From the IMG/VR virus record IMGVR_UViG_3300033074_000010, positions 1 through 41,294 of that record: 41,294 nucleotides of DNA; one strand, given 5' to 3'. Position numbers and translations under genes: made by a program. The notes beneath the pieces were generated by a model. It was not told where the DNA came from. It saw only the letters and a list, made by a program, of their open reading frames with translations, and did no database searches. The first letter of the stretch is position 1, and each line of letters begins with the position of its first letter. Origin of the DNA: a virus. Lineage: Duplodnaviria > Heunggongvirae > Uroviricota > Caudoviricetes. Of the stretch, positions 1 through 41,205 are shown piece after piece.

Positions 1-41
1 GCGGTGGAGACTGCGTAGGGTTCAGGGGCTTATGACCGAAA

Positions 42-68
42 CCCGGACCGCGAATCCGGGTTTTATTT
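42..68 (+). terminator. intrinsic terminator-like hairpin
   Basis: Stem CCCGGA(42-47)/TCCGGG(55-60) followed by TTTT(61-64). Confidence 0.4.
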
Positions 69-74
69 TACCAA

Positions 75-103
75 TTGACACCTAAGACTAATACGACGAT
101 ACT
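75..103 (+). promoter_or_regulatory. sigma70-like promoter
   Basis: TTGACA(75-80), 17-nt spacer, GATACT(98-103). Confidence 0.45.
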
Positions 104-144
104 TAAATCACCTCCTGTTCCATCCCTCTGCTCTCCAGTTTTAT

Positions 145-174
145 CCCGGCCCTGACCCAGCCGGGATTTTTTTT
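145..174 (+). terminator. rho-independent terminator
   Basis: Stem CCCGGC(145-150)/GCCGGG(160-165) followed by T8 run (167-174). Confidence 0.6.
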
Positions 175-196
175 ATCTATTTTCTGCAATGACTAG

Positions 197-225
197 TTGA
201 CTATTACCCTAGACCCTATTATATT
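197..225 (+). promoter_or_regulatory. sigma70-like promoter
   Basis: TTGACT(197-202), 17-nt spacer, TATATT(220-225); precedes first small ORF. Confidence 0.5.
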
Positions 226-258
226 TACTTCATCGACAACGAGAACGGAGTAGAGAAG

Positions 259-408
259 ATGAAAATCACAGATATCGAAGCATTCGAAGACGCACAACTG
301 ATGGCACGTATTGCCGTTCATAACCTGAGCAACAGTATTCCGGCGGACGAGATCTGGTTCGCAGCGATGCAGACACTTAAAGCAGCTTATGCAGGAGAGA
401 AGAAATGA
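259..408 (+). CDS. hypothetical small protein (49 aa)
   Basis: ATG with GGAG upstream; stop overlaps next start (ATGA); below the ORF-track size cutoff, read by hand. Confidence 0.45.
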   Translation: MKITDIEAFEDAQLMARIAVHNLSNSIPADEIWFAAMQTLKAAYAGEKK

Positions 409-563
409 GCGAACACGGTGAAGTAAGCCAACCATTACGAGTAGGCCGCAAAGTCAGTCATACCCCGTTCCCGACACGCGAGGAACTGATGAAACGCAAC
501 AGTTTCCCTGGGCCTGACAAGAACAAGTACCTAAATCGAATGTGGGGAGAGCGTAAAGTATGA
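405..563 (+). CDS. hypothetical small protein (52 aa)
   Basis: ATG 405 overlaps preceding stop; ends TGA 561-563 overlapping next ATG; hand-translated. Confidence 0.45.
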   Translation: MSEHGEVSQPLRVGRKVSHTPFPTREELMKRNSFPGPDKNKYLNRMWGERKV

Positions 564-733
564 CTAACAACGAATATGAGAAACTTAGCGTAGAATCCGC
601 GACCGGTGAATCTGAAATAGCATGGATTGACGCCCACATTGAGCACTACTTACGGCAAGTAGACGTCCTTATGGAACGCCGCCGTGAGCTTATTAACCGC
701 TTCAACCTGAACAAAGGTGACACTAATGCCTAA
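560..733 (+). CDS. hypothetical small protein (57 aa)
   Basis: ATG 560 in ATGA overlap; stop TAA 731-733; hand-translated. Confidence 0.45.
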   Translation: MTNNEYEKLSVESATGESEIAWIDAHIEHYLRQVDVLMERRRELINRFNLNKGDTNA

Positions 734-1004
734 AATCACAATCGCATCACTCGAACGCCGTATTCTGGTGCTTGAATCAGAGAAACAGACGTTAGGTGGG
801 CAACTGTCGATTAATGGTGAGTTTCAACTGGAGGCGTTTAAGCAGTTACTCACATTAACGGCGGACATAGAAAGTATGCTTTGGTTGCTGGGGTCGGGAG
901 AATGGGCCGAACATTGCGCTGAATCGGAGTTAGGCAAACGGCTTGAGTCAGAGATTACTAACATGCTGAGTGGTCTTGGGTGGTCTCCAGATGAAAGCGC
1001 CTGA
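726..1004 (+). CDS. hypothetical protein (92 aa)
   Basis: ORF track 717..1004; likely ATG at 726 after AAAGGTGA. Confidence 0.55.
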   Translation: MPKITIASLERRILVLESEKQTLGGQLSINGEFQLEAFKQLLTLTADIESMLWLLGSGEWAEHCAESELGKRLESEITNMLSGLGWSPDESA

Positions 1005-1173
1005 ACCGGTAGTTATTGATGGCGTCTTGTGGAAGCCTTACTCGGTTAACCACATCGACGCCGACGGGAAGAAGTTCAGCTTCTACATTTTTGCAATTAG
1101 CCGTGAGCACGCCGCCTGTGTGGTCGACGATATACGAGAAACGGCGTGGCTTGGCGATGAGATAGTGAGGTGA
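991..1173 (+). CDS. hypothetical protein (60 aa)
   Basis: ORF track 970..1173; ATG 991 overlaps upstream gene end. Confidence 0.5.
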   Translation: MKAPEPVVIDGVLWKPYSVNHIDADGKKFSFYIFAISREHAACVVDDIRETAWLGDEIVR

Positions 1174-1177
1174 GAGT

Positions 1178-1276
1178 ATGAGTATGAGTCTCGAGGTGGT
1201 TATTGGCCTTGTAGCAGCAGGTTATTTTATCGGCGTATTGATTGGGTTTATGTGGGGTAGAGACAGTGTTCAGTGA
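1178..1276 (+). CDS. possible small membrane protein (32 aa)
   Basis: Hand-translated MSMSLEVVIGLVAAGYFIGVLIGFMWGRDSVQ; one hydrophobic helix; GAGG upstream; overlaps ORF 1242..1436 in another frame. Confidence 0.3.
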   Translation: MSMSLEVVIGLVAAGYFIGVLIGFMWGRDSVQ

Positions 1277-1436
1277 CATCAACGCGGCAATCGAAGAAGC
1301 AATCTGGCGCCGATACAACGGCGAGCAACAACGCCACTTCTGCCTGGTGCAACGCGGTAACATGATTGCCGTAGTGCAGGACCGCGATAACAAATATCCG
1401 AATGCGATGTGGACAACGAGGAATTTCTTAGGATGA
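1242..1436 (+). CDS. hypothetical protein (64 aa)
   Basis: ORF track; no clear RBS; stop overlaps next ATG (ATGA at 1433-1436). Confidence 0.3.
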   Translation: MGLCGVETVFSDINAAIEEAIWRRYNGEQQRHFCLVQRGNMIAVVQDRDNKYPNAMWTTRNFLG

Positions 1437-1669
1437 TTACCAGCATTCCGAACCTGATTAAAGAATTTGGCACGATGGCGGAGACATGCCGACAAACTGG
1501 CATCAACGAAATGACGATTGCGAAGTACAGCAAAGATGTTGATTGCGAGCGCCACGTAATTTATAACAACCGTCTTATGACGCACGTTAAGACAAGCCCG
1601 GTGTTATTCACGCGCCGGGGTATCACTAAAACTGAGCAACGCATTGCTAAAGAGGAGAGCAGGGAATGA
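1433..1669 (+). CDS. hypothetical protein (78 aa)
   Basis: ORF track 1409..1669; ATG 1433 in ATGA overlap; AGGAA upstream. Confidence 0.5.
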   Translation: MITSIPNLIKEFGTMAETCRQTGINEMTIAKYSKDVDCERHVIYNNRLMTHVKTSPVLFTRRGITKTEQRIAKEESRE

Positions 1670-1767
1670 GACTGCTAATCATCCCCAACGCTTGGACCAT
1701 TACCGTAGCTAACGACCATTACGGCGGCGATGGTAAAAGAGCACCACGACACGGCCTGTATAACTGA
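1666..1767 (+). CDS. hypothetical small protein (33 aa)
   Basis: ATG 1666 in ATGA overlap with upstream stop; GGAGAG upstream; hand-translated. Confidence 0.35.
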   Translation: MRLLIIPNAWTITVANDHYGGDGKRAPRHGLYN

Positions 1768-1781
1768 TTGGAGAGTAAGAT

Positions 1782-2003
1782 ATGAAAATTAAGCTAATAT
1801 CGGATGATGATGTTATGAATTGTGTAGGTAAGATGCACCACGGAGAGCCTACTTATTACATCTGTAACGTATTAAAATACACATATCCGAATTTAGACAC
1901 ACCATCAGTTCTCCGTAAGATTAAGGATATGGAGAAAAGAGGCCTCGTAAAGCGAACTAAAAGTCCGCTCTTCAAAAATAGCATAACCTGGACCTCGGTA
2001 TAG
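1782..2003 (+). CDS. hypothetical protein (73 aa), AT-rich
   Basis: ORF track; RBS GGAGAG 1770-1775; followed by terminator; lower GC than neighbours. Confidence 0.55.
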   Translation: MKIKLISDDDVMNCVGKMHHGEPTYYICNVLKYTYPNLDTPSVLRKIKDMEKRGLVKRTKSPLFKNSITWTSV

Positions 2004-2012
2004 CCGCTACTT

Positions 2013-2034
2013 GCCCTCTACGGAGGGCTTTTCT
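2013..2034 (+). terminator. rho-independent terminator
   Basis: Stem GCCCTC(2013-2018)/GAGGGC(2023-2028), loop TACG, then TTTTCT. Confidence 0.6.
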
Positions 2035-2128
2035 GTACATCCCGCCCAATACCCTTATATAATCCCTTTAGACGCGTAGGGCGCGTCTGGTGCGCTCTGA
2101 TGGTCAGACGCATATGCAAGGGGATTCT

Positions 2129-27887: not shown

Positions 27888-28175
27888 TTAACTATAATAG
27901 TGTGCTATTAGGGTGTCAACCTGTTTAAACGAGCCAACGACAAAAACATTTGCACCACGTTTACGCATACGCTCGTGCTCTCGTAACTGGTGCGGGTCTG
28001 GCTTCGTGTTTTCGTCTTTCTTCACCTCGACAAACCAGACTATGCCGCCAGGGAGAATTACCAGCAGGTCTGGAGCGCCGGAGCGCCCCTCGTAGGAAAG
28101 TTTACGAACGAGGCCACCAATGGCCTCGAATCGCTCCTTCGTGTATTTCTGTATTTTGCCCTCAGGCGTACTCAT
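27888..28175 (-). CDS. VRR-NUC domain nuclease (putative)
   Basis: PD-(D/E)XK-like core GAPDLLVILPGGIVWFVEVKK; 95 aa. Confidence 0.65.
   Translation of the reverse strand: MSTPEGKIQKYTKERFEAIGGLVRKLSYEGRSGAPDLLVILPGGIVWFVEVKKDENTKPDPHQLREHERMRKRGANVFVVGSFKQVDTLIAHYYS
27891..27919 (-). promoter_or_regulatory. sigma70-like promoter with conserved box (site 2)
   Basis: Read on - strand: TTGACA (27914-27919), 17 nt, TATAGT (27891-27896); palindrome AATAGTGTGCTATT 27896-27909. Confidence 0.6.
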
Positions 28176-31449: not shown

Positions 31450-31478
31450 ACTATAATAGCTAACTATTCGGGTGTCAA
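31450..31478 (-). promoter_or_regulatory. sigma70-like promoter with conserved box (site 3)
   Basis: Read on - strand: TTGACA (31473-31478), 17 nt, TATAGT (31450-31455); palindrome AATAGCTAACTATT 31455-31468. Confidence 0.6.
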
Positions 31479-33550: not shown

Positions 33551-33579
33551 ACTATAATAGTGAACTATTCACTTGTCAA
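33551..33579 (-). promoter_or_regulatory. sigma70-like promoter with conserved box (site 4)
   Basis: Read on - strand: TTGACA (33574-33579), 17 nt, TATAGT (33551-33556); palindrome AATAGTGAACTATT 33556-33569; divergent from the Cro-like gene. Confidence 0.6.
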
Positions 33580-36794: not shown

Positions 36795-36819
36795 TAAAAT
36801 ACAAAAGATGCTACTAGTA

Positions 36820-36848
36820 TTGACTTTTACTGAGAAATATGGTAAGCT
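36820..36848 (+). promoter_or_regulatory. sigma70-like promoter (extended -10)
   Basis: TTGACT (36820-36825), 17 nt, TGgTAAGCT (36840-36848); same hexamers as promoter at 7090-7118. Confidence 0.55.
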
Positions 36849-36851
36849 CGT

Positions 36852-36963
36852 CCTGAGCTTGTGAAGTATGAACAAGCGACCGCGGTGCGCGGCAGGCGAA
36901 ACGAGCACGTCTCGACGTGTGGAGTGAGCCTCGCTGACGCATTCGGAAGGGCCATAGTCTATT
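36852..36963 (+). ncRNA. candidate structured RNA / cis-regulatory leader, copy B (family unassigned)
   Basis: Paralogue of 7122-7230; no ORF of 60 aa or more on + strand; identical 5' 34 nt and near-identical 3' block. Confidence 0.4.
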
Positions 36964-37118
36964 ATAATTCCCCGCCTAAATATCTAAGTTATTGATTTGC
37001 CGTAGGTCAGAACCGCAAGCTCACTCACTCACTCTTGGTGCCTTCGGCACCACGTTCGTTTCGTTTCGCTCGCTACCCCATTAAACAAAAGAATCACAAC
37101 GGCAACGTAACTAATCTC

Positions 37119-37147
37119 TTGCACACCCCAATATAATAGGGTACTAT
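37119..37147 (+). promoter_or_regulatory. promoter with conserved box (site 6)
   Basis: TTGCAC (37119-37124), 17 nt, TACTAT (37142-37147); box ATATAATAGGGTACTATTCAC; leader AAACGAGACAGAGGAG precedes ATG. Confidence 0.5.
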
Positions 37148-37181
37148 TCACTTATCGAAACGAGACAGAGGAGTGAGGGTT

Positions 37182-37373
37182 ATGTTTAAGAATGGTCAGT
37201 TGGTTAAATGCGCCGACGGTGAACACGGCATAATTGAATTAAAATCTAAGTTATTTCCCGGTGAGTACGTAGTGACCGTGCAAAAGGTGAGAGGGGTAAA
37301 TTCACAAATATACGTAGAAGAGGAGAACTTAAAACTCATCGGCAACAATTTTAAATTAAAAGGGGCGAAGTGA
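37182..37373 (+). CDS. hypothetical protein (63 aa), AT-rich
   Basis: ATG 37182 9 nt after GAGGAG; track ORF 37173..37373. Confidence 0.5.
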   Translation: MFKNGQLVKCADGEHGIIELKSKLFPGEYVVTVQKVRGVNSQIYVEEENLKLIGNNFKLKGAK

Positions 37374-37576
37374 TGGAAGAATTATTTGAAGAACTGAAAC
37401 ATCATGATTTCGAGGAAATATATTTCGTAGCTGAACGCTACGAGGTGCATTTATCGGACGGGATTACAATTATTACGATGGATAGCCAGCAAATGCTAAA
37501 TAGCTTACAGGCAATCAAAACGGCATCGAATCGTGATGCTTGTGCCGACGACTCTGAGGGAGGTTGCCGTGAATAA
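37373..37576 (+). CDS. hypothetical acidic protein (67 aa)
   Basis: ATG overlapping upstream stop; track ORF 37370..37576. Confidence 0.45.
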   Translation: MEELFEELKHHDFEEIYFVAERYEVHLSDGITIITMDSQQMLNSLQAIKTASNRDACADDSEGGCRE

Positions 37577-37636
37577 TTACCTGTTTATTTTAATAGTCAG
37601 CGCCGTTTATGTGGTGCACGCGTTGTGGGGGTTGAT

Positions 37637-37831
37637 ATGAGTCCTTATAACCGGTTTCGTCTGGAGCGTCTACGTCGCGGATTAAGTAACGCTAAATTAG
37701 CTCTCGATATATGGGAGAGTACGCCATATTCTTCCTCGAAGGCATGGTTTGTAGCCCGTGCTAAAGCGTCCGTACAGTATCGCGAGTACAAGTTAAACAG
37801 TTTCCTTAAACACCACGGGGTAGAGCTATGA
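37637..37831 (+). CDS. hypothetical protein (64 aa)
   Basis: ATG 37637 after GGGGG; track ORF 37625..37831. Confidence 0.45.
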   Translation: MSPYNRFRLERLRRGLSNAKLALDIWESTPYSSSKAWFVARAKASVQYREYKLNSFLKHHGVEL

Positions 37832-37977
37832 GAGAAGCATTTGAACGGTGGGCCGTCGTCGAGGGTCTGCCGGTTAACAAGGGCTCGAAGAAAGAGTACC
37901 TGAACGTTAAGACGCGTCTCGCGTGGCGGGCGTGGAAAGCAGGAGTGCAAGCTCGTGCTGGTGTAACAGGTCAATAG
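37828..37977 (+). CDS. hypothetical small protein (49 aa)
   Basis: Hand-translated MREAFERWAVVEGLPVNKGSKKEYLNVKTRLAWRAWKAGVQARAGVTGQ; ATGA overlap; followed by terminator. Confidence 0.4.
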   Translation: MREAFERWAVVEGLPVNKGSKKEYLNVKTRLAWRAWKAGVQARAGVTGQ

Positions 37978-38000
37978 TTTAAGATTTTACTGAGTGACTT

Positions 38001-38030
38001 ACGCTGCTACACAGCAGCGTATCATTTTTC
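38001..38030 (+). terminator. rho-independent terminator
   Basis: Stem ACGCTGCT/AGCAGCGT (38001-38020), ACAC loop, then ATCATTTTTC. Confidence 0.6.
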
Positions 38031-38114
38031 TCATTTTTGTTCTATTTCACCAAACGCAACAATCGAAGCGACTATTGCAGGAGATGCAACAATACAAACA
38101 CCAATAAAATTTAC

Positions 38115-38143
38115 TTGCACACTAAGATAGAATAGGCTACTAT
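38115..38143 (+). promoter_or_regulatory. promoter with conserved box (site 7)
   Basis: TTGCAC (38115-38120), 17 nt, TACTAT (38138-38143); box AGAATAGGCTACTATTCAT; leader AAACGAGAGGAGAGA precedes ATG. Confidence 0.5.
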
Positions 38144-38174
38144 TCATTTACACAAACGAGAGGAGAGACAGAAG

Positions 38175-38294
38175 ATGTATAAGTATCTGACGGTTGAGAA
38201 ACTGGAACAGCTTTATGCTGAGTTGCGAGTTTGCAGTGTATGCAGCGGCGACAACGAGCATGTTTACGGCGAACTGGAGGTAGCTGATGAGTAA
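38175..38294 (+). CDS. hypothetical small protein (39 aa)
   Basis: Hand-translated MYKYLTVEKLEQLYAELRVCSVCSGDNEHVYGELEVADE; RBS GAGAGGAGAG; stop overlaps next ATG. Confidence 0.4.
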   Translation: MYKYLTVEKLEQLYAELRVCSVCSGDNEHVYGELEVADE

Positions 38295-38712
38295 CAAAAA
38301 CGAAGTATTCGAGTACCTGATTGACCAGCTACGGCAGCAGGTAAACAGCAGCCCGTACAAGCAACAGTGTGAAGACCTGGCGCATGAGGTGTTGTCACTC
38401 AAGAATCAGTTACGTGATGCTTCGGCGCAGATTAAGGAGTTGCATCTGGCTCTGTCCCAAGCTACGGGTGACGTGGAGGCGTATAAACTTATCCGCAAAG
38501 GTGGGTACGTTTCCGCAGGCCAGCGCTACGTGGTTGGCGAACATGCGCCCGGGCCAACGGTAAATTGTCGGTGCACACAGACGCCTGTACCGCCGGAGCA
38601 ATCTGGTTGCCGTAAGGAAGATACGCAGGAGTGCCGCCACGACTTTGAATACATATACCCTGAAAGCGGGGTGCACCGTCATTGTATTAAATGTGGATGG
38701 ATAACCGAATGA
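38287..38712 (+). CDS. hypothetical protein with Cys-rich C-terminus (141 aa)
   Basis: ORF track; C-terminal cysteines (NCRC...GC...ECRHD...HCIKCGW) suggest a zinc-binding module. Confidence 0.55.
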   Translation: MSNKNEVFEYLIDQLRQQVNSSPYKQQCEDLAHEVLSLKNQLRDASAQIKELHLALSQATGDVEAYKLIRKGGYVSAGQRYVVGEHAPGPTVNCRCTQTPVPPEQSGCRKEDTQECRHDFEYIYPESGVHRHCIKCGWITE

Positions 38713-38912
38713 CCAGCATCCTATTTATATGGGTATTGTCTGCGGGCCAGATGCAACTCGCGGCATCAGAAACGTTTTACTCGATGGAGGCGTGCCAGTC
38801 AGCGGCACGCGCCGCAGAGAACGCGCACTTCCTGTTTCAGGGTGACAAGCCCAACGATTCAGAGGTACGCGCTATCTGCTCACCTAAGCGACTTGGTAAA
38901 CAGGAGAGATAA
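38709..38912 (+). CDS. hypothetical secreted or membrane-anchored protein (67 aa)
   Basis: ATG 38709 in ATGA overlap; N-terminal hydrophobic signal-like segment MTSILFIWVLSAGQMQLAA. Confidence 0.45.
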   Translation: MTSILFIWVLSAGQMQLAASETFYSMEACQSAARAAENAHFLFQGDKPNDSEVRAICSPKRLGKQER

Positions 38913-38913
38913 C

Positions 38914-39195
38914 ATGGTACAGAGATATGAGCTTAAAGATGTTAGTGAATACCCCTACGACCCGTATAACGACCTGGTGGAGAGTGACGAAGGTGTTTGG
39001 GTTAGCTACGAAGACTACAAGGAACTGGACAACAGATTCCAGGACTACGTAGTTACAACAGAGATGGAAGTAGCGGAACTTGTGGCAAGACTGGCAGAAG
39101 TAAATGCCGAGTTACAGAAATACAAAGACCAGTTTCCGGATTACGTCGAGTGCGCGAACTGTGGGTCAGTTACACATGTGGAAGGGGTGGAGTGA
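38914..39195 (+). CDS. hypothetical protein (93 aa), paralogue of next gene
   Basis: ATG 38914 after CAGGAGAG; N-terminus MVQRY and YEDYKEL motif shared with downstream ORF. Confidence 0.5.
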   Translation: MVQRYELKDVSEYPYDPYNDLVESDEGVWVSYEDYKELDNRFQDYVVTTEMEVAELVARLAEVNAELQKYKDQFPDYVECANCGSVTHVEGVE

Positions 39196-39398
39196 TGGTG
39201 CAGAGATATGTTGCGTCTTATAACGACTATTATACCCATGAAGACGGGGAATTTGTTACTTACGAAGACTACGTGGAACTCGAGACCGCCGTTATCGCAC
39301 TACTCGTGGATATAAACCGACGCTATCCTGGGGAAGGGTTTAAGTGCCCGTTAATACTTAAACTCGCGGAGATTGTGGAACATGAGCCTCGCAACTGA
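39195..39398 (+). CDS. hypothetical protein (67 aa), paralogue of previous gene
   Basis: ATG 39195 overlapping upstream stop; begins MVQRY, contains YEDYVEL. Confidence 0.5.
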   Translation: MVQRYVASYNDYYTHEDGEFVTYEDYVELETAVIALLVDINRRYPGEGFKCPLILKLAEIVEHEPRN

Positions 39399-39675
39399 CA
39401 TCCTGAAACGAAGCGGCCTTGCGCCGCTGTCACCGAGAGCGAACACCCGAATATACAAGCGCCGTCGTAACGCGCTGTACCCGGAGATACAAGAACGGCG
39501 CAAAGCTATCCGCGCCTGTGGGTTCCAGAACGGGAAGGCCGTGAACCTCGGTGAGTTCAAAACACAAGAGCGCGCCGCAATCGCTAATCGGTTATTTAAT
39601 TACTGGAAGTCGCTGGGGTACGATGATATTCCGACGAAACCACAGAGACGACAATACATCTGGAGACACAAATGA
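39382..39675 (+). CDS. hypothetical basic protein (97 aa)
   Basis: ATG 39382; Arg/Lys-rich; track ORF 39373..39675. Confidence 0.45.
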   Translation: MSLATDILKRSGLAPLSPRANTRIYKRRRNALYPEIQERRKAIRACGFQNGKAVNLGEFKTQERAAIANRLFNYWKSLGYDDIPTKPQRRQYIWRHK

Positions 39676-40109
39676 CTACTATCGCGTTCGACGGAAGGAC
39701 CATGGCCTGTGATACCCGAGTAGCCGGGGACCACATTTACAACACAGATACCAAGATATATGAGAACGAGTTTGTTGTTATCGGTGTGGCGGGTAATGCT
39801 GAAGCTGGTATCCTTTTAGTGAGGGACGATGGCATTTTAGTACCTAAGCATTATGATTTTGATTTCTCTGCTTTGGTGTACGTGAAAGACACGGAAAAGG
39901 TGTATAAAGTCGCATTTTATAAATCATGGGATTGTGCACTTAGTTCAGTTATTCCGATTGCTGATAGCTTTGCCGCCGTCGGCTCTGGTGCACCATATGC
40001 ACTAGCGGCTATGTATTTAGGCCATACAGCGACACGTTCTGTAACAGTAGCCACCCAATTCGACACCAACACCGGCGGCAAGATTATTACCAAACAACTA
40101 TTAGGATAA
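39672..40109 (+). CDS. HslV-like / proteasome-type Ntn-hydrolase peptidase (putative)
   Basis: N-terminus MTTIAFDG (Thr after initiator Met, as in HslV MTTIV); GSGAPYALAA matches HslV GSGGPYAQAA; 145 aa. Confidence 0.55.
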   Translation: MTTIAFDGRTMACDTRVAGDHIYNTDTKIYENEFVVIGVAGNAEAGILLVRDDGILVPKHYDFDFSALVYVKDTEKVYKVAFYKSWDCALSSVIPIADSFAAVGSGAPYALAAMYLGHTATRSVTVATQFDTNTGGKIITKQLLG

Positions 40110-40742: not shown

Positions 40743-41205
40743 TGGATTGCATTTCACTGCTGCATTCGAGGGATTCCGCGGAACTGCGTATCGCGCTACG
40801 CCGAACGAGAAGTACCTGACTATTGGCTACGGGCATTACGGGCCTGACGTAACTCCAGGCAAGACCATCACTCCCGGGCAAGGCCTCCTGTTACTGAATC
40901 GTGATATGGCTAAGGCTGTAGCCGCGGTTGACGCAGCAGCACACCATTCACTGACACAGGCGCAGTTTGATGCTGTGTGCGACCTGGTCTATAACGCTGG
41001 TGCTGGCGTGATTGCGTCTACTACGGGCACGGGCAAGGCCCTGCGCTCAGGAGATATTGCAACACTGCGTGCCAAGCTGGCGCGGTTCATCAATCAGAAC
41101 GGCAAACCGTTACTTGGCCTGCGTCGCCGTACCGCAGGACGTCTGGCATTGTTCGACGGTAAACCGTGGCAGGAGGCTGAGGCTATTGGGAGAGCCGTTA
41201 AATGA
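40720..41205 (+). CDS. endolysin, GH24 lysozyme (P22 gp19 / T4 e-like)
   Basis: Catalytic region EGFRGTAYRATPNEKYLTIGYGHYG; C-terminal LLGLRRRTAGRLALF resembles P22 lysozyme; GTG 40720 7 nt after GGAGGA (track ORF begins TTG 40669). Confidence 0.8.
   Translation: MSRNISDNGLHFTAAFEGFRGTAYRATPNEKYLTIGYGHYGPDVTPGKTITPGQGLLLLNRDMAKAVAAVDAAAHHSLTQAQFDAVCDLVYNAGAGVIASTTGTGKALRSGDIATLRAKLARFINQNGKPLLGLRRRTAGRLALFDGKPWQEAEAIGRAVK

Follow-up and report, generated by a model that had tools for sequence, protein, structure and literature searches.

Knowledge of runs of small, interlinked accessory genes dates from the description of the lambda nin region, which Kroger and Hobom called a 'chain of interlinked genes' and which can be deleted whole with plaques still forming (PMC10695390). 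In phage P22, deletions of ninB-ninH and of orf25-orf80 are viable (PMC11016777). The orf25-orf80 locus is non-essential, and an effect on host physiology and on the phage carrier state is reported for it in the part of PMC11016777 that cites Cenens et al. 2013. In the lambdoid phages, the nin region is flanked by the replication genes (O/P or 18/12) and by the late antiterminator gene Q/23, within the N-antiterminated PR operon. The locus analyzed here lies elsewhere. The window, a stretch of 41,294 nucleotides (positions 1 to 41,294 of IMG/VR record IMGVR_UViG_3300033074_000010), is the near-complete genome of a Kagunavirus (Guernseyvirinae), a phage of E. coli, in which a cassette of small genes sits between the endolysin gene and the small terminase gene, with its own promoter and terminator. 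We consider it likely that this cassette is a self-contained operon of small accessory genes occupying a fixed slot, the Guernseyvirinae counterpart of the lambdoid nin/ea regions.

The cassette is embedded in a rightward gene array, downstream of the lysis genes and directly upstream of the terminase. The original prediction had placed it at the left end of the sequence, which is an arbitrary break of the window and not a physical genome end: the endolysin gene ends at position 41205, and the cassette comes right after it across the break. PhageTerm detected no termini in the sister phage fBC-Eco01, and on this ground we did not adopt a genome end at window position 166, which the shared start of four metagenomic contigs could suggest.

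The tiny overlapping ORFs are real phage genes, members of an operon of ten that extends over ~1.8 kb. Nine consecutive plus-strand ORFs of 32-92 aa had been proposed between positions 259 and 1767; their coordinates hold, and dN/dS, Shine-Dalgarno (SD) sequences, and tiling identify them as coding. The count of nine was one short, as a tenth ORF, o10 (1782-2003), precedes the closing terminator. Plus-strand ORFs of at least 32 aa tile 95.8% of positions 230-1800, compared with 56 ± 13% (maximum 89.6%) in 1000 first-order Markov randomizations matched for dinucleotide frequencies, none of which reached the observed value. Coding density over 259-2003 is 99%. All nine starts are preceded by a purine-rich SD 5-12 nt upstream, and the successive junctions from o1 to o10 measure -4, -4, -8, -14, +4, -11, -4, -4, and +14 nt. 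The ATGA overlaps at 405-408, 560-563, 1433-1436, and 1666-1669 are all read directly in the sequence, as had been claimed; the number of ORFs below 60 aa, given as four, is five by the longest-ORF definition or six with homology-supported starts.

Conservation of the reading frames in relatives, the check named in the original prediction, was examined in ~50 related phages. Pooled dN/dS values of 0.05-0.21, from comparisons with 17-52 relatives, reveal purifying selection on all nine ORFs, each of which also displays an excess of third-position substitutions; the same two signals are seen for o10 in one comparison. A long antisense ORF on the minus strand (1097-1585) is interrupted by stops in 36 of 45 relatives. 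The overlaps are maintained as well: where the two neighbors are adjacent, the o7/o8 junction reads ATGA or TTGA in 32/32 relatives and the o1/o2 junction reads ATGA in 23 of 26. All but one of the ten ORFs have a PHROG match, and the same CDSs are annotated in relatives, with the phage Schulenburg record also marking ribosome-binding sites. Six of the ten products gave no informative homolog or fold match in sequence and structure searches, neither NCBIfam nor PADLOC returned anything informative for any of the ten proteins, and PDB sequence searches with o1, o4, o5 (profile), o7, o8, and o10 found no match below E 0.1. The statement that no function is recognizable was nevertheless too strong, given that o2 belongs to DUF2737, o8 is NinH-like, o3 is NinZ-like, and o10 weakly resembles MarR/winged-helix proteins.

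The probable limits of the transcript are set by promoters and intrinsic terminators, all on the plus strand. Promoters P1 (75-103; TTGACA-17 nt-GATACT) and P2 (197-225; TTGACT-17 nt-TATATT) each match the consensus at 10 of 12 positions, and the hexamers of P2 are invariant. Among 15 diverse Guernseyvirinae loci, both P1 hexamers are invariant and the spacer is variable; the homology block common to relatives starts exactly at 75, where P1 begins. P1 is followed by a short C/U-rich, G-poor leader that ends in an intrinsic terminator (110-174; stem 143-150/160-167, T-run 167-174, T8) with a hairpin dG of -13.8 kcal/mol and a z-score of -2.35. The segment CATCCCTCT in this leader/terminator region is invariant, and one pair of the terminator changes in a compensatory manner (C-G to T-A) between Kagunavirus and Jersey-like loci. 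Thus, two promoters do precede the ORFs, as had been proposed, with good consensus matches and invariant hexamers, but the terminator between them leaves P2 alone to serve the genes directly. Because this conserved terminator intervenes, P1 probably yields a short RNA, a candidate species of ~65 nt (110-174). An Rfam search of the leader gave only weak matches, below threshold. A specific target of the candidate RNA in the phage genome was considered and rejected, the best duplex reaching -29.8 kcal/mol versus -31.2 ± 2.8 for shuffled seeds.

P2, a strong sigma-70 promoter, is the promoter of the operon. It matches TTGACW-N13-CTATTATAKT, a consensus of 16 specified bases that the 41-kb genome contains just four times, against 0 copies expected by chance. 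The remaining three occurrences are found in the replication module, upstream of the C5-methylase gene, of the genes encoding the ssDNA-binding protein plus DNA polymerase A, and of a PD-(D/E)XK exonuclease gene. Sharing a promoter family with the replication genes makes an early or middle accessory role possible for the cassette, which may be co-regulated with them. The only Kagunavirus transcriptome, that of phage K1B4, is a misfit with this shared-promoter argument: the NinH gene is classed as 'middle', outside the four early genes, and the DNA polymerase and methylase as 'late', in a coarse study that defines classes by peak time over 120 min and whose Glimmer annotation misses most small genes. 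On the distal side, the operon is closed by an intrinsic terminator (2013-2036; hairpin 2013-2028, GCCCTC-TACG-GAGGGC followed by TTTTCTG) whose conservation extends over 48 loci; in Jersey-like phages, a T-A pair is replaced by G-C in a compensatory manner. Promoter P3 (2034-2063; TGTACA-18 nt-TATAAT) of the terminase/structural operon marks the right edge of the cassette. In relatives, its -35 hexamer is invariant and its -10 hexamer is TATAAT or TACAAT.

Comparison across relatives divides the cassette into a backbone and a cargo. Four genes (o1, o2, o3, and o8) are present in 51-52 of 52 loci, as opposed to 1-39 of 52 for o4-o7, o9, and o10. Among the loci of 35 relatives, the slot accommodates 6-13 genes in 1.2-3.0 kb, drawn from ~58 ORF families, and the gene order is fixed. 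The first backbone gene, o1 (49 aa, 259-408), matches phrog_2180 with an E of 1e-25, occurs in 51/52 loci with a dN/dS of 0.20, and has homologs in 625 phage records, nearly all from Guernseyvirinae. The 'head protein' label that it carries in the EC3-1 record finds no support in any profile and was discarded. The second, o2 (52 aa, 405-563; 51/52 loci, dN/dS 0.12), is a member of DUF2737 by its score against Pfam PF10930, which is above the gathering score (E 8.6e-10, 38.8 bits versus a cutoff of 25). We know of no DUF2737 family member with a tested function. Lambdoid phage ES18 carries a homolog of o2, gene 44, which is situated in the early-left 'ea' region and adjoins abc2; the ES18 record notes a similarity of gene 44 to P22 orf56. 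The third, o3 (57 aa, 560-733), is a helical protein similar to P22 NinZ, with 42% identity over 43 aa (E 1e-8) in a pairwise alignment and 33% over 52 aa in a set of 24 sequences. It is found in 51/52 loci as divergent alleles of 45-95% identity. No Pfam model exists for the NinZ family.

The fourth backbone gene, o8 (78 aa, 1433-1669), starts at an ATG, is present in 52/52 loci with a dN/dS of 0.15, and encodes a divergent NinH-like protein with a Fis-type helix-turn-helix (HTH) and a β-hairpin. This assignment is based on a weak match to Pfam NinH (PF06322; E 5.5e-5, 23.4 bits, under the gathering score of 29.8) together with 33% identity to lambda NinH over 51 aa (about 30-33%). P22 NinH was also matched, and close cluster relatives of o8 have precomputed PF06322 matches. 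The AF2 model of o8, built like that of o5 on a shallow alignment for which the homolog search gave close relatives only, places helices at residues 5-12, 15-22, and 26-32 and strands at 38-44 and 47-53, with a pLDDT of 78-88 over residues 1-40. Three helices followed by a β-hairpin are the architecture of the published model of NinH (PMC7166090), which in lambda is a Fis-like mimic of a nucleoid-associated protein. A Foldseek search of o8 against the PDB had no match at E ≤ 0.001 and retrieved generic HTH domains at E > 0.4 (N15 Cro and the LysR and TyrR DNA-binding domains).

At the residue level, o8 keeps T32 and K35 of lambda NinH, which contact DNA, and H45 and H55 of the dimer interface; G17 is also conserved. 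It differs at N18 (T), R30 (E, invariant in the clade), R34 (A), and R56 (V), so that only two of the five residues with which lambda NinH contacts DNA (N18, R30, T32, R34, and K35) remain, and the dimer residue R56 is gone as well. In lambda NinH, R30A and R56A each abolish DNA binding (PMC7166090). With key contact residues missing, DNA binding by o8 is not to be assumed. An in-frame fusion of 117-118 aa, which joins the N-terminal 44 aa of o3 to the NinH-like o8, is encoded by some Jerseyviruses (loci L042, L046, and L047, and ER23 gp27), and its existence explains why o3 and o8 both match phrog_268. Because these relatives make a single fused protein, o3 and o8 most likely act jointly as one small putative DNA-binding factor.

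The remaining six genes appear, from their distribution, to be interchangeable accessory genes that are also found in unrelated phage groups. The longest, o4 (92 aa, 726-1004, ATG start; dN/dS 0.15), is a chimeric, mosaic gene with a conserved N-terminal segment of 42-47 aa and an exchangeable C-terminal half; it is present in 36/52 loci, which mostly have residues 1-42 alone in common, and is covered to at least 80% in only 28 of 137 phage records. A relationship between o4 and P22 orf80 was judged too weak, the alignment covering 28 aa at 32% identity with an E of 0.02 in a database of 24 sequences. Gene o5 (60 aa, 991-1173, ATG start), found in 39/52 loci with a dN/dS of 0.05, has a predicted small β-β-β-α-β fold (AF2 pLDDT 84). 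Its homologs occur in Pectobacterium, Cronobacter, and Serratia phages of 145-155 kb and in one Pseudomonas phage, and a Foldseek search against the PDB yielded no match at E ≤ 0.001. The ORF o6 (32 aa, 1178-1276) encodes a predicted single-pass hydrophobic micropeptide that is 30 aa long from the second ATG at 1184, the start used in relatives. It is found in 17/52 loci (dN/dS 0.12) as two allelic variants, 27-30 aa long, whose C-terminus is always F[LM]WG[RK], and it has no PHROG or Pfam match. P22 NinA, also a tiny membrane peptide ending in WGR, was rejected as a homolog of o6, with an E of 0.06 in the 24-sequence database and no alignment by pairwise BLASTP.

The accessory ORF o7 (56 aa, 1266-1436) uses a GTG start, as do 4 relatives, the start being ATG in 29 others. 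It occurs in 36/52 loci with a dN/dS of 0.13 and has homologs of 44-47% identity in Escherichia/Shigella phages of ~70 kb, among them Bas96, a Gamaleyavirus according to the BASEL paper. The micro-gene o9 (33 aa, 1666-1767; phrog_32259, E 4.5e-17) is present in 34/52 loci, Jersey-like ones included, with a dN/dS of 0.10. Finally, o10 (73 aa, 1782-2003) is a rare gene, found in 1/52 loci and in 30 phage records that include Salmonella phages of 42-44 kb and Klebsiella phages of 46-49 kb. Its product is a putative winged-helix protein (MarR/ArsR-like), with a Pfam MarR match under the cutoff (E 4.6e-4) and a homolog labeled 'ArsR-like HTH' in phage Shelanagig. No profile supports the label 'ferric uptake regulation protein' given to o10 in the EC3-1 record, and we rejected it.

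We used these data to formulate a model of how the accessory operon would work. First, host sigma-70 RNA polymerase would start at P2 (197-225) and stop at the terminator at 2013-2036. Second, the ten cistrons would be translated as a coupled chain, each from its own SD and mostly from a start that overlaps the previous stop, an arrangement that allows re-initiation by ribosomes and could permit the expression of ORFs as short as 30 aa. Third, the accessory cistrons would be swapped by recombination at or within gene boundaries. The products would be small, individually dispensable tuners of DNA transactions, gene expression, or host physiology, serving no structural, replication, or lysis function. 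The retention of the backbone genes in essentially every relative could, on this comparative evidence, signal importance instead of dispensability.

The original prediction regarded coupled micro-ORFs as typical of host-takeover modules, which would make the products immediate-early proteins that redirect or shut off host transcription, translation, division, or nucleoid function. The T7 class I, T4 immediate-early, and N4 early clusters do resemble the cassette in having small, packed ORFs of unknown function and host-type promoters. The overlaps themselves are undiagnostic, since 4-nt start/stop overlaps also join terminase, head, and tail genes of the window (2671/2674, 11232/11235, 11624/11627, 12037/12040, and 20463/20466). 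Unlike the takeover clusters, the cassette has no match to known shut-off or takeover proteins in profile searches of all ten products, and it lies away from a first-injected end: it follows the lysis genes and precedes the terminase, with no entering genome end and no termini detected, and a separate run of small ORFs occupies the divergent control region at ~36.8-39.7 kb. The absence of the NinH gene from the four early genes of K1B4, in the coarse study cited above, points in the same direction. Moreover, most cistrons come and go between close, even near-identical, relatives that infect the same species. We regard a takeover module as unlikely.

An accessory operon whose variable cistrons form a counter-defense island, inhibiting host defense systems or toxin-antitoxin modules, would account for their rapid turnover and horizontal spread. 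The hypervariable presence and absence of cistrons within conserved promoter and terminator borders is in line with such a role, as is the occurrence of the accessory genes in unrelated phages. So are the weak similarity of the predicted o5 fold to Dmd, Acr proteins, and p56 and the position of the o2 homolog in ES18 next to the anti-RecBCD gene abc2. On this evidence, we hold a dedicated counter-defense function to be a doubtful, minority explanation.

A late-gene timing switch is less probable again. It would have the NinZ-like and NinH-like proteins, possibly with o10, bind repeats at the P3/terminase leader and activate or anti-terminate the structural operon. The cassette is directly upstream of P3, which combines a poor -35 (TGTACA) with a spacer of 18 nt, a layout typical of promoters that depend on an activator; inverted repeats at 2070-2111, near P3 and the terminase leader, are conserved; the backbone is kept subfamily-wide; and no late regulator is annotated elsewhere in the genome. 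The argument is, however, purely positional, NinH is not a late regulator in lambda, and o8 is devoid of the key DNA-contact arginines. An elaborated version, to which we give a slimmer chance still, sees the backbone as a dedicated regulatory device in which the NinZ-like and NinH-like halves of one putative DNA-binding protein, whose recognition helix is changed (R30 to E) and which is expressed from a replication-class promoter, would time late genes at the P3/terminase leader repeats, and the P1 RNA (~65 nt) would add a second layer as an sRNA or a lambda-6S-like attenuated leader. If true, this device would supply the Guernseyvirinae with an early-to-late switch and NinZ with a first function. 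The notion that the ORFs are chance open frames within a non-coding or regulatory spacer, which their very short length (30-92 aa) and the six products with no functional annotation might invite, is effectively refuted by the comparative data, namely dN/dS of 0.05-0.21 with third-position excess throughout, tiling reached by 0/1000 shuffles, conserved start codons, SDs, and overlaps, and PHROG matches for 9/10 ORFs.

The result is an ordinary one, as hundreds of Kagunavirus/Jerseyvirus records already contain the cassette, with its products labeled hypothetical proteins. What is gained is a cleaner annotation: ten genes with homology-supported starts, one operon with its borders, and a split between backbone and cargo. 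The natural NinZ::NinH fusion gives a testable hint of what NinZ does and of the way in which NinH-like proteins may work without canonical DNA-contact arginines. Small phages of this kind are already in use as chassis for synthetic biology and therapy, and the combination of conserved borders with freely exchanged content suggests that the slot is a natural insertion site for engineering.

We return to the favored reading, an accessory operon akin to the lambdoid nin/ea regions, to compare the cassette with its described counterparts. In position, it matches the P22 orf25-orf80 (pid) locus, a group of small ORFans that likewise separates the lysis cassette from the small terminase gene; there is no convincing homology between the two loci, and P22 is temperate. 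The lambdoid DUF2737 genes of the 'ea' region, exemplified by ES18 gene 44, have in common with o2 the segment formed by residues 20-51. They belong to the PL operon and lie beside recombination/anti-RecBCD genes, whereas o2 is the second cistron of a post-lysis cassette. In a 24-sequence comparison, NinB, C, D, E, F, G, I, X, and Y had no match among the cassette proteins. Compared with lambda NinH, o8 has a longer, basic C-terminal tail, and in some relatives, a NinZ-like N-terminal helix is fused to it. The ninH and ninZ genes are adjacent in P22, as are the NinH-like and NinZ-like genes in Jersey-like relatives of the cassette, although the cassette order, NinZ-like then NinH-like, is the reverse of that in P22. 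What the cassette shares with the lambda and P22 nin region is its makeup: small genes on the same strand, linked by stop/start overlaps, mosaic in content, and mostly of unknown function.

The ten small + strand ORFs of the cassette (o1–o10), which fill 259–2003 at a coding density of 99%, are genes. Nine of them and four ATGA overlaps lie exactly where the original prediction placed them. With starts picked by homology, these are o1 (259–408, 49 aa), o2 (405–563, 52 aa), o3 (560–733, 57 aa), o4 (726–1004, 92 aa), o5 (991–1173, 60 aa), o6 (1178/1184–1276, 32/30 aa), o7 (1266–1436, 56 aa), o8 (1433–1669, 78 aa) and o9 (1666–1767, 33 aa). All nine begin with ATG except o7 (GTG), and a Shine-Dalgarno sequence of the GGAG/GAGG type lies upstream of every start. 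A tenth, o10 (1782–2003, 73 aa), prolongs the chain. Plus-strand ORFs of 32 aa or more occupy 95.8% of the region versus 56 ± 13% in randomisations, a coverage reached by none of 1000. Conservation of the reading frames, proposed at the outset as a check, was confirmed against 50 related IMG/VR loci and two GenBank relatives: substitutions fall mostly at third positions, and pooled dN/dS is 0.05–0.21, a purifying pattern in every ORF. Stops break the frame of a 162-aa antisense ORF in 36 of 45 relatives. Nine of the ten ORFs match PHROG families of unknown function, and related public records already carry cassette ORFs as annotated genes. The feature itself is real and was correctly observed.

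Public annotation of these genes is uneven. In phage EC3-1, the homologues of o6 and o7 (2735–2990) are unannotated, though its o7 is 98% identical, and the labels ‘head protein’ for o1, ‘host nuclease inhibitor’ for o5 and ‘ferric uptake regulation protein’ for o10 found no profile support.

Window positions 1–2100 match 376 phage records, best of all E. coli Kagunavirus isolates (86–94% identity), followed at lower identity by Salmonella Jersey-like phages. The window runs from a + strand block of small ORFs, terminase, head and tail genes, through a − strand block encoding DNA polymerase A, helicase-primase, exonuclease and methylase, to a + strand block of further small ORFs, holins and endolysin that ends at 41205. 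Complete Kagunavirus genomes have this gene order, so the window represents such a genome, nearly complete and opened at an arbitrary point. The ‘left end’ location first given to the cluster has to be abandoned: it sits between the endolysin and small terminase subunit genes, as it does in EC3-1 and Schulenburg. For the sister phage fBC-Eco01, PhageTerm detected no defined termini. Four independent contigs of metagenome 3300045988 (L007, L008, L014, L023) share an identical first base at window 166–167, directly after the hairpin that terminates transcription from P1, the first promoter upstream of o1 (contig start ATTTTTTTTATC...); this could be a physical end, the start of a packaging series or an assembly artefact. 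Downstream of the endolysin gene, a hairpin of 10 bp with a U-rich tract behind it (38–64, +) is likely the lysis cassette terminator. Only 5–8 of 50 relatives share window 1–74, which makes the stretch ahead of position 75 a variable one. Between the divergent control region and the holins there is another, longer run of small ORFs (~36800–39700, +; Bas74_0055–0067 in a relative), whose position makes it likelier than the cassette to contain the earliest genes.

Two promoters had been placed upstream of o1, and both stood up: P1 (75–103, +) and P2 (197–225, +) are sigma-70-type, each matching 10/12 consensus positions. In an alignment of 15 diverse loci, their hexamers are invariant and their spacers variable, the usual signature of real promoters. 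Between them lies an intrinsic terminator (stem 143–150/160–167, +), a conserved hairpin followed by eight T residues, which the scanning tool overlooked because of its 9-nt loop; one stem pair is C-G in one of the two genera and T-A in the other. P1 therefore most likely gives a short, terminated, C/U-rich RNA. P2 is most likely the operon promoter. Its phage-specific consensus, TTGACW-N13-CTATTATAKT, has four copies in the genome where chance predicts none, and the other three copies (27891–27919, 31450–31478 and 33551–33579, all −) precede genes for a C5-methylase, for ssDNA-binding protein and DNA polymerase A, and for a PD-(D/E)XK exonuclease. This shared consensus links the cassette to DNA-metabolism genes and is the best timing evidence here; the cassette is probably co-regulated with them and transcribed by unmodified host polymerase. 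A strong intrinsic terminator (2013–2028, +), kept in 48 loci, with a compensatory change of T-A to G-C in the Jersey-like phages, closes the operon, and P3, the terminase operon promoter, follows directly; a conserved regulatory block thus stands on either side of the cassette. Just downstream of P3, the small-terminase leader contains conserved overlapping inverted repeats (2070–2111, +; arms AGACGCG/CGCGTCT and GCGTCTG/CAGACGC), retained in Jersey-like phages, which might serve as an operator, an RNA structure or a signal for packaging.

The conserved P1 RNA is the least explained element near the cassette. Its leader is C/U-rich and G-poor over ~35 nt, with CATCCCTCT invariant, and the intrinsic terminator comes next; the predicted product would be ~65 nt long and lie immediately upstream of the operon promoter. 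The 75–174 block is 90–98% identical across Kagunavirus and 74–82% in Jersey-like phages. Rfam matches are weak and sub-threshold (Betaproteobacteria toxic sRNA, 25 bits against a gathering score of 50; anti-hemB, 19.6 bits), and no specific target was found in the phage. The candidate might act as an sRNA or be an attenuated leader of the lambda-6S type.

Among the cassette proteins, o2 belongs to DUF2737, with a Pfam score above threshold; its lambdoid homologue is gene 44 of ES18, a neighbour of abc2 in the early-left ‘ea’ region. The o3 product is 42% identical to P22 NinZ over 43 residues (E 1e-8). That of o8 shares about 30–33% identity with lambda and P22 NinH; its Pfam NinH match (E 5.5e-5) falls under the gathering score, and close relatives have precomputed NinH matches. 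The AF2 model of o8 has three helices and then a beta-hairpin (pLDDT 78–88 for the first 40 residues), the same arrangement as in the published model of NinH, a homodimeric Fis-like DNA-bending protein (PMC7166090). Only T32, K35, H45 and H55 of the lambda NinH key residues are kept in o8: R30 is replaced by Glu (invariant in the clade), R34 by Ala or Ser, and neither N18 nor R56 is retained. We therefore call o8 NinH-like and do not assume Fis-like DNA binding. In three Jersey-like loci (L042, L046 and L047, 2872–3228) and in RefSeq phage ER23 (NC_073197, 1201–1554), the o3 homologue contributes its first 44 residues to an in-frame fusion with the o8 homologue, a NinZ::NinH protein of 117–118 aa (gp27, 117 aa, in ER23). 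Because of this natural fusion, o3 and o8 match different halves of phrog_268; it is the origin of the 119-position PHROG 268 profile. The two genes abut in other Jersey-like phages, and ninH and ninZ adjoin in P22; natural fusion of such neighbours argues that the o3 and o8 products work together. For o10 there is a weak winged-helix match (MarR/ArsR-like), and o6 is a hydrophobic peptide of 27–32 aa with a conserved F[LM]WG[RK] end, whose likeness to P22 NinA failed a pairwise test. NCBIfam and PADLOC scans returned nothing informative for o1, o4, o7 and o9, nor did PDB sequence searches for o1, o4 and o7.

Conservation divides the cassette into backbone and cargo. The backbone genes o1, o2, o3 and o8 occur in 51–52 of 52 loci in constant order; the others are found in 36 (o4), 39 (o5), 17 (o6), 36 (o7), 34 (o9) and one (o10). 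In the 35 loci that have both flanking genes, the slot between endolysin and small terminase measures 1.2–3.0 kb and holds 6–13 ORFs, roughly 58 families by crude chaining and clustering. Several signs point to exchange among cassette genes. Only the first 42–47 residues of o4 are common to most relatives, so a recombination joint lies inside it. Relatives of o5 occur in Pectobacterium, Cronobacter and Serratia phages of ~150 kb, those of o7 in ~70-kb Escherichia/Shigella phages, among them Bas96 (assigned to Gamaleyavirus in the BASEL paper), and those of o10 in Salmonella (42–44 kb) and Klebsiella (46–49 kb) phages. Overlaps are conserved wherever the same two genes adjoin: 4 nt for o7/o8 (32 of 32), ATGA for o1/o2 (23/26), 8 nt for o3/o4 (26/35) and 14 nt for o4/o5 (24/31).

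Translationally coupled micro-ORFs of this kind had been read as typical of host-takeover modules, a role we consider unlikely here. The promoter class is compatible with early or middle expression, and overproduced NinH is toxic (PMC7166090), but nothing specific speaks for takeover: ATGA overlaps also join the window's terminase, head and tail genes, none of the known takeover proteins was matched, the cluster does not lie at an end by which the genome enters the cell, and the divergent control region has another small-ORF run. The NinH gene is ‘middle’, outside the four early genes, in the only Kagunavirus transcriptome, a study too coarse to weigh heavily because DNA polymerase is also classed ‘late’ there. 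Counter-defence is an equally plausible, and no better supported, role for the cargo genes; BASEL Kagunaviruses are still highly sensitive to restriction-modification systems (BASEL paper).

We favour an operon of small regulatory or modulatory proteins. Host RNA polymerase would transcribe one ~1.8-kb mRNA from P2 to the terminator at ~2036, and ribosomes would translate its ten cistrons in a coupled series. Within the backbone set, o3 and o8 probably make up a two-part DNA-binding factor; the cargo set is variable and moves horizontally. The cassette is ordinary, a well-known kind of phage gene arrangement annotated already in many public genomes, to which we make three small additions: the limits of the operon, its division into backbone and cargo, and the NinZ::NinH fusion.

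The lambdoid nin and ea regions have the same build as proposed here. The lambda nin region is ‘a chain of interlinked genes’ whose whole deletion leaves plaque formation intact (PMC10695390). In P22, ninB–ninH is deletable and so is the orf25–orf80 locus (PMC11016777), which occupies the same lysis-to-terminase slot as the cassette. Two or three gene families are common to the cassette and the lambdoid nin and ea regions. By position, and by most of its content, the cassette is not a nin region; by analogy, it would work as the lambdoid nin and ea regions do.
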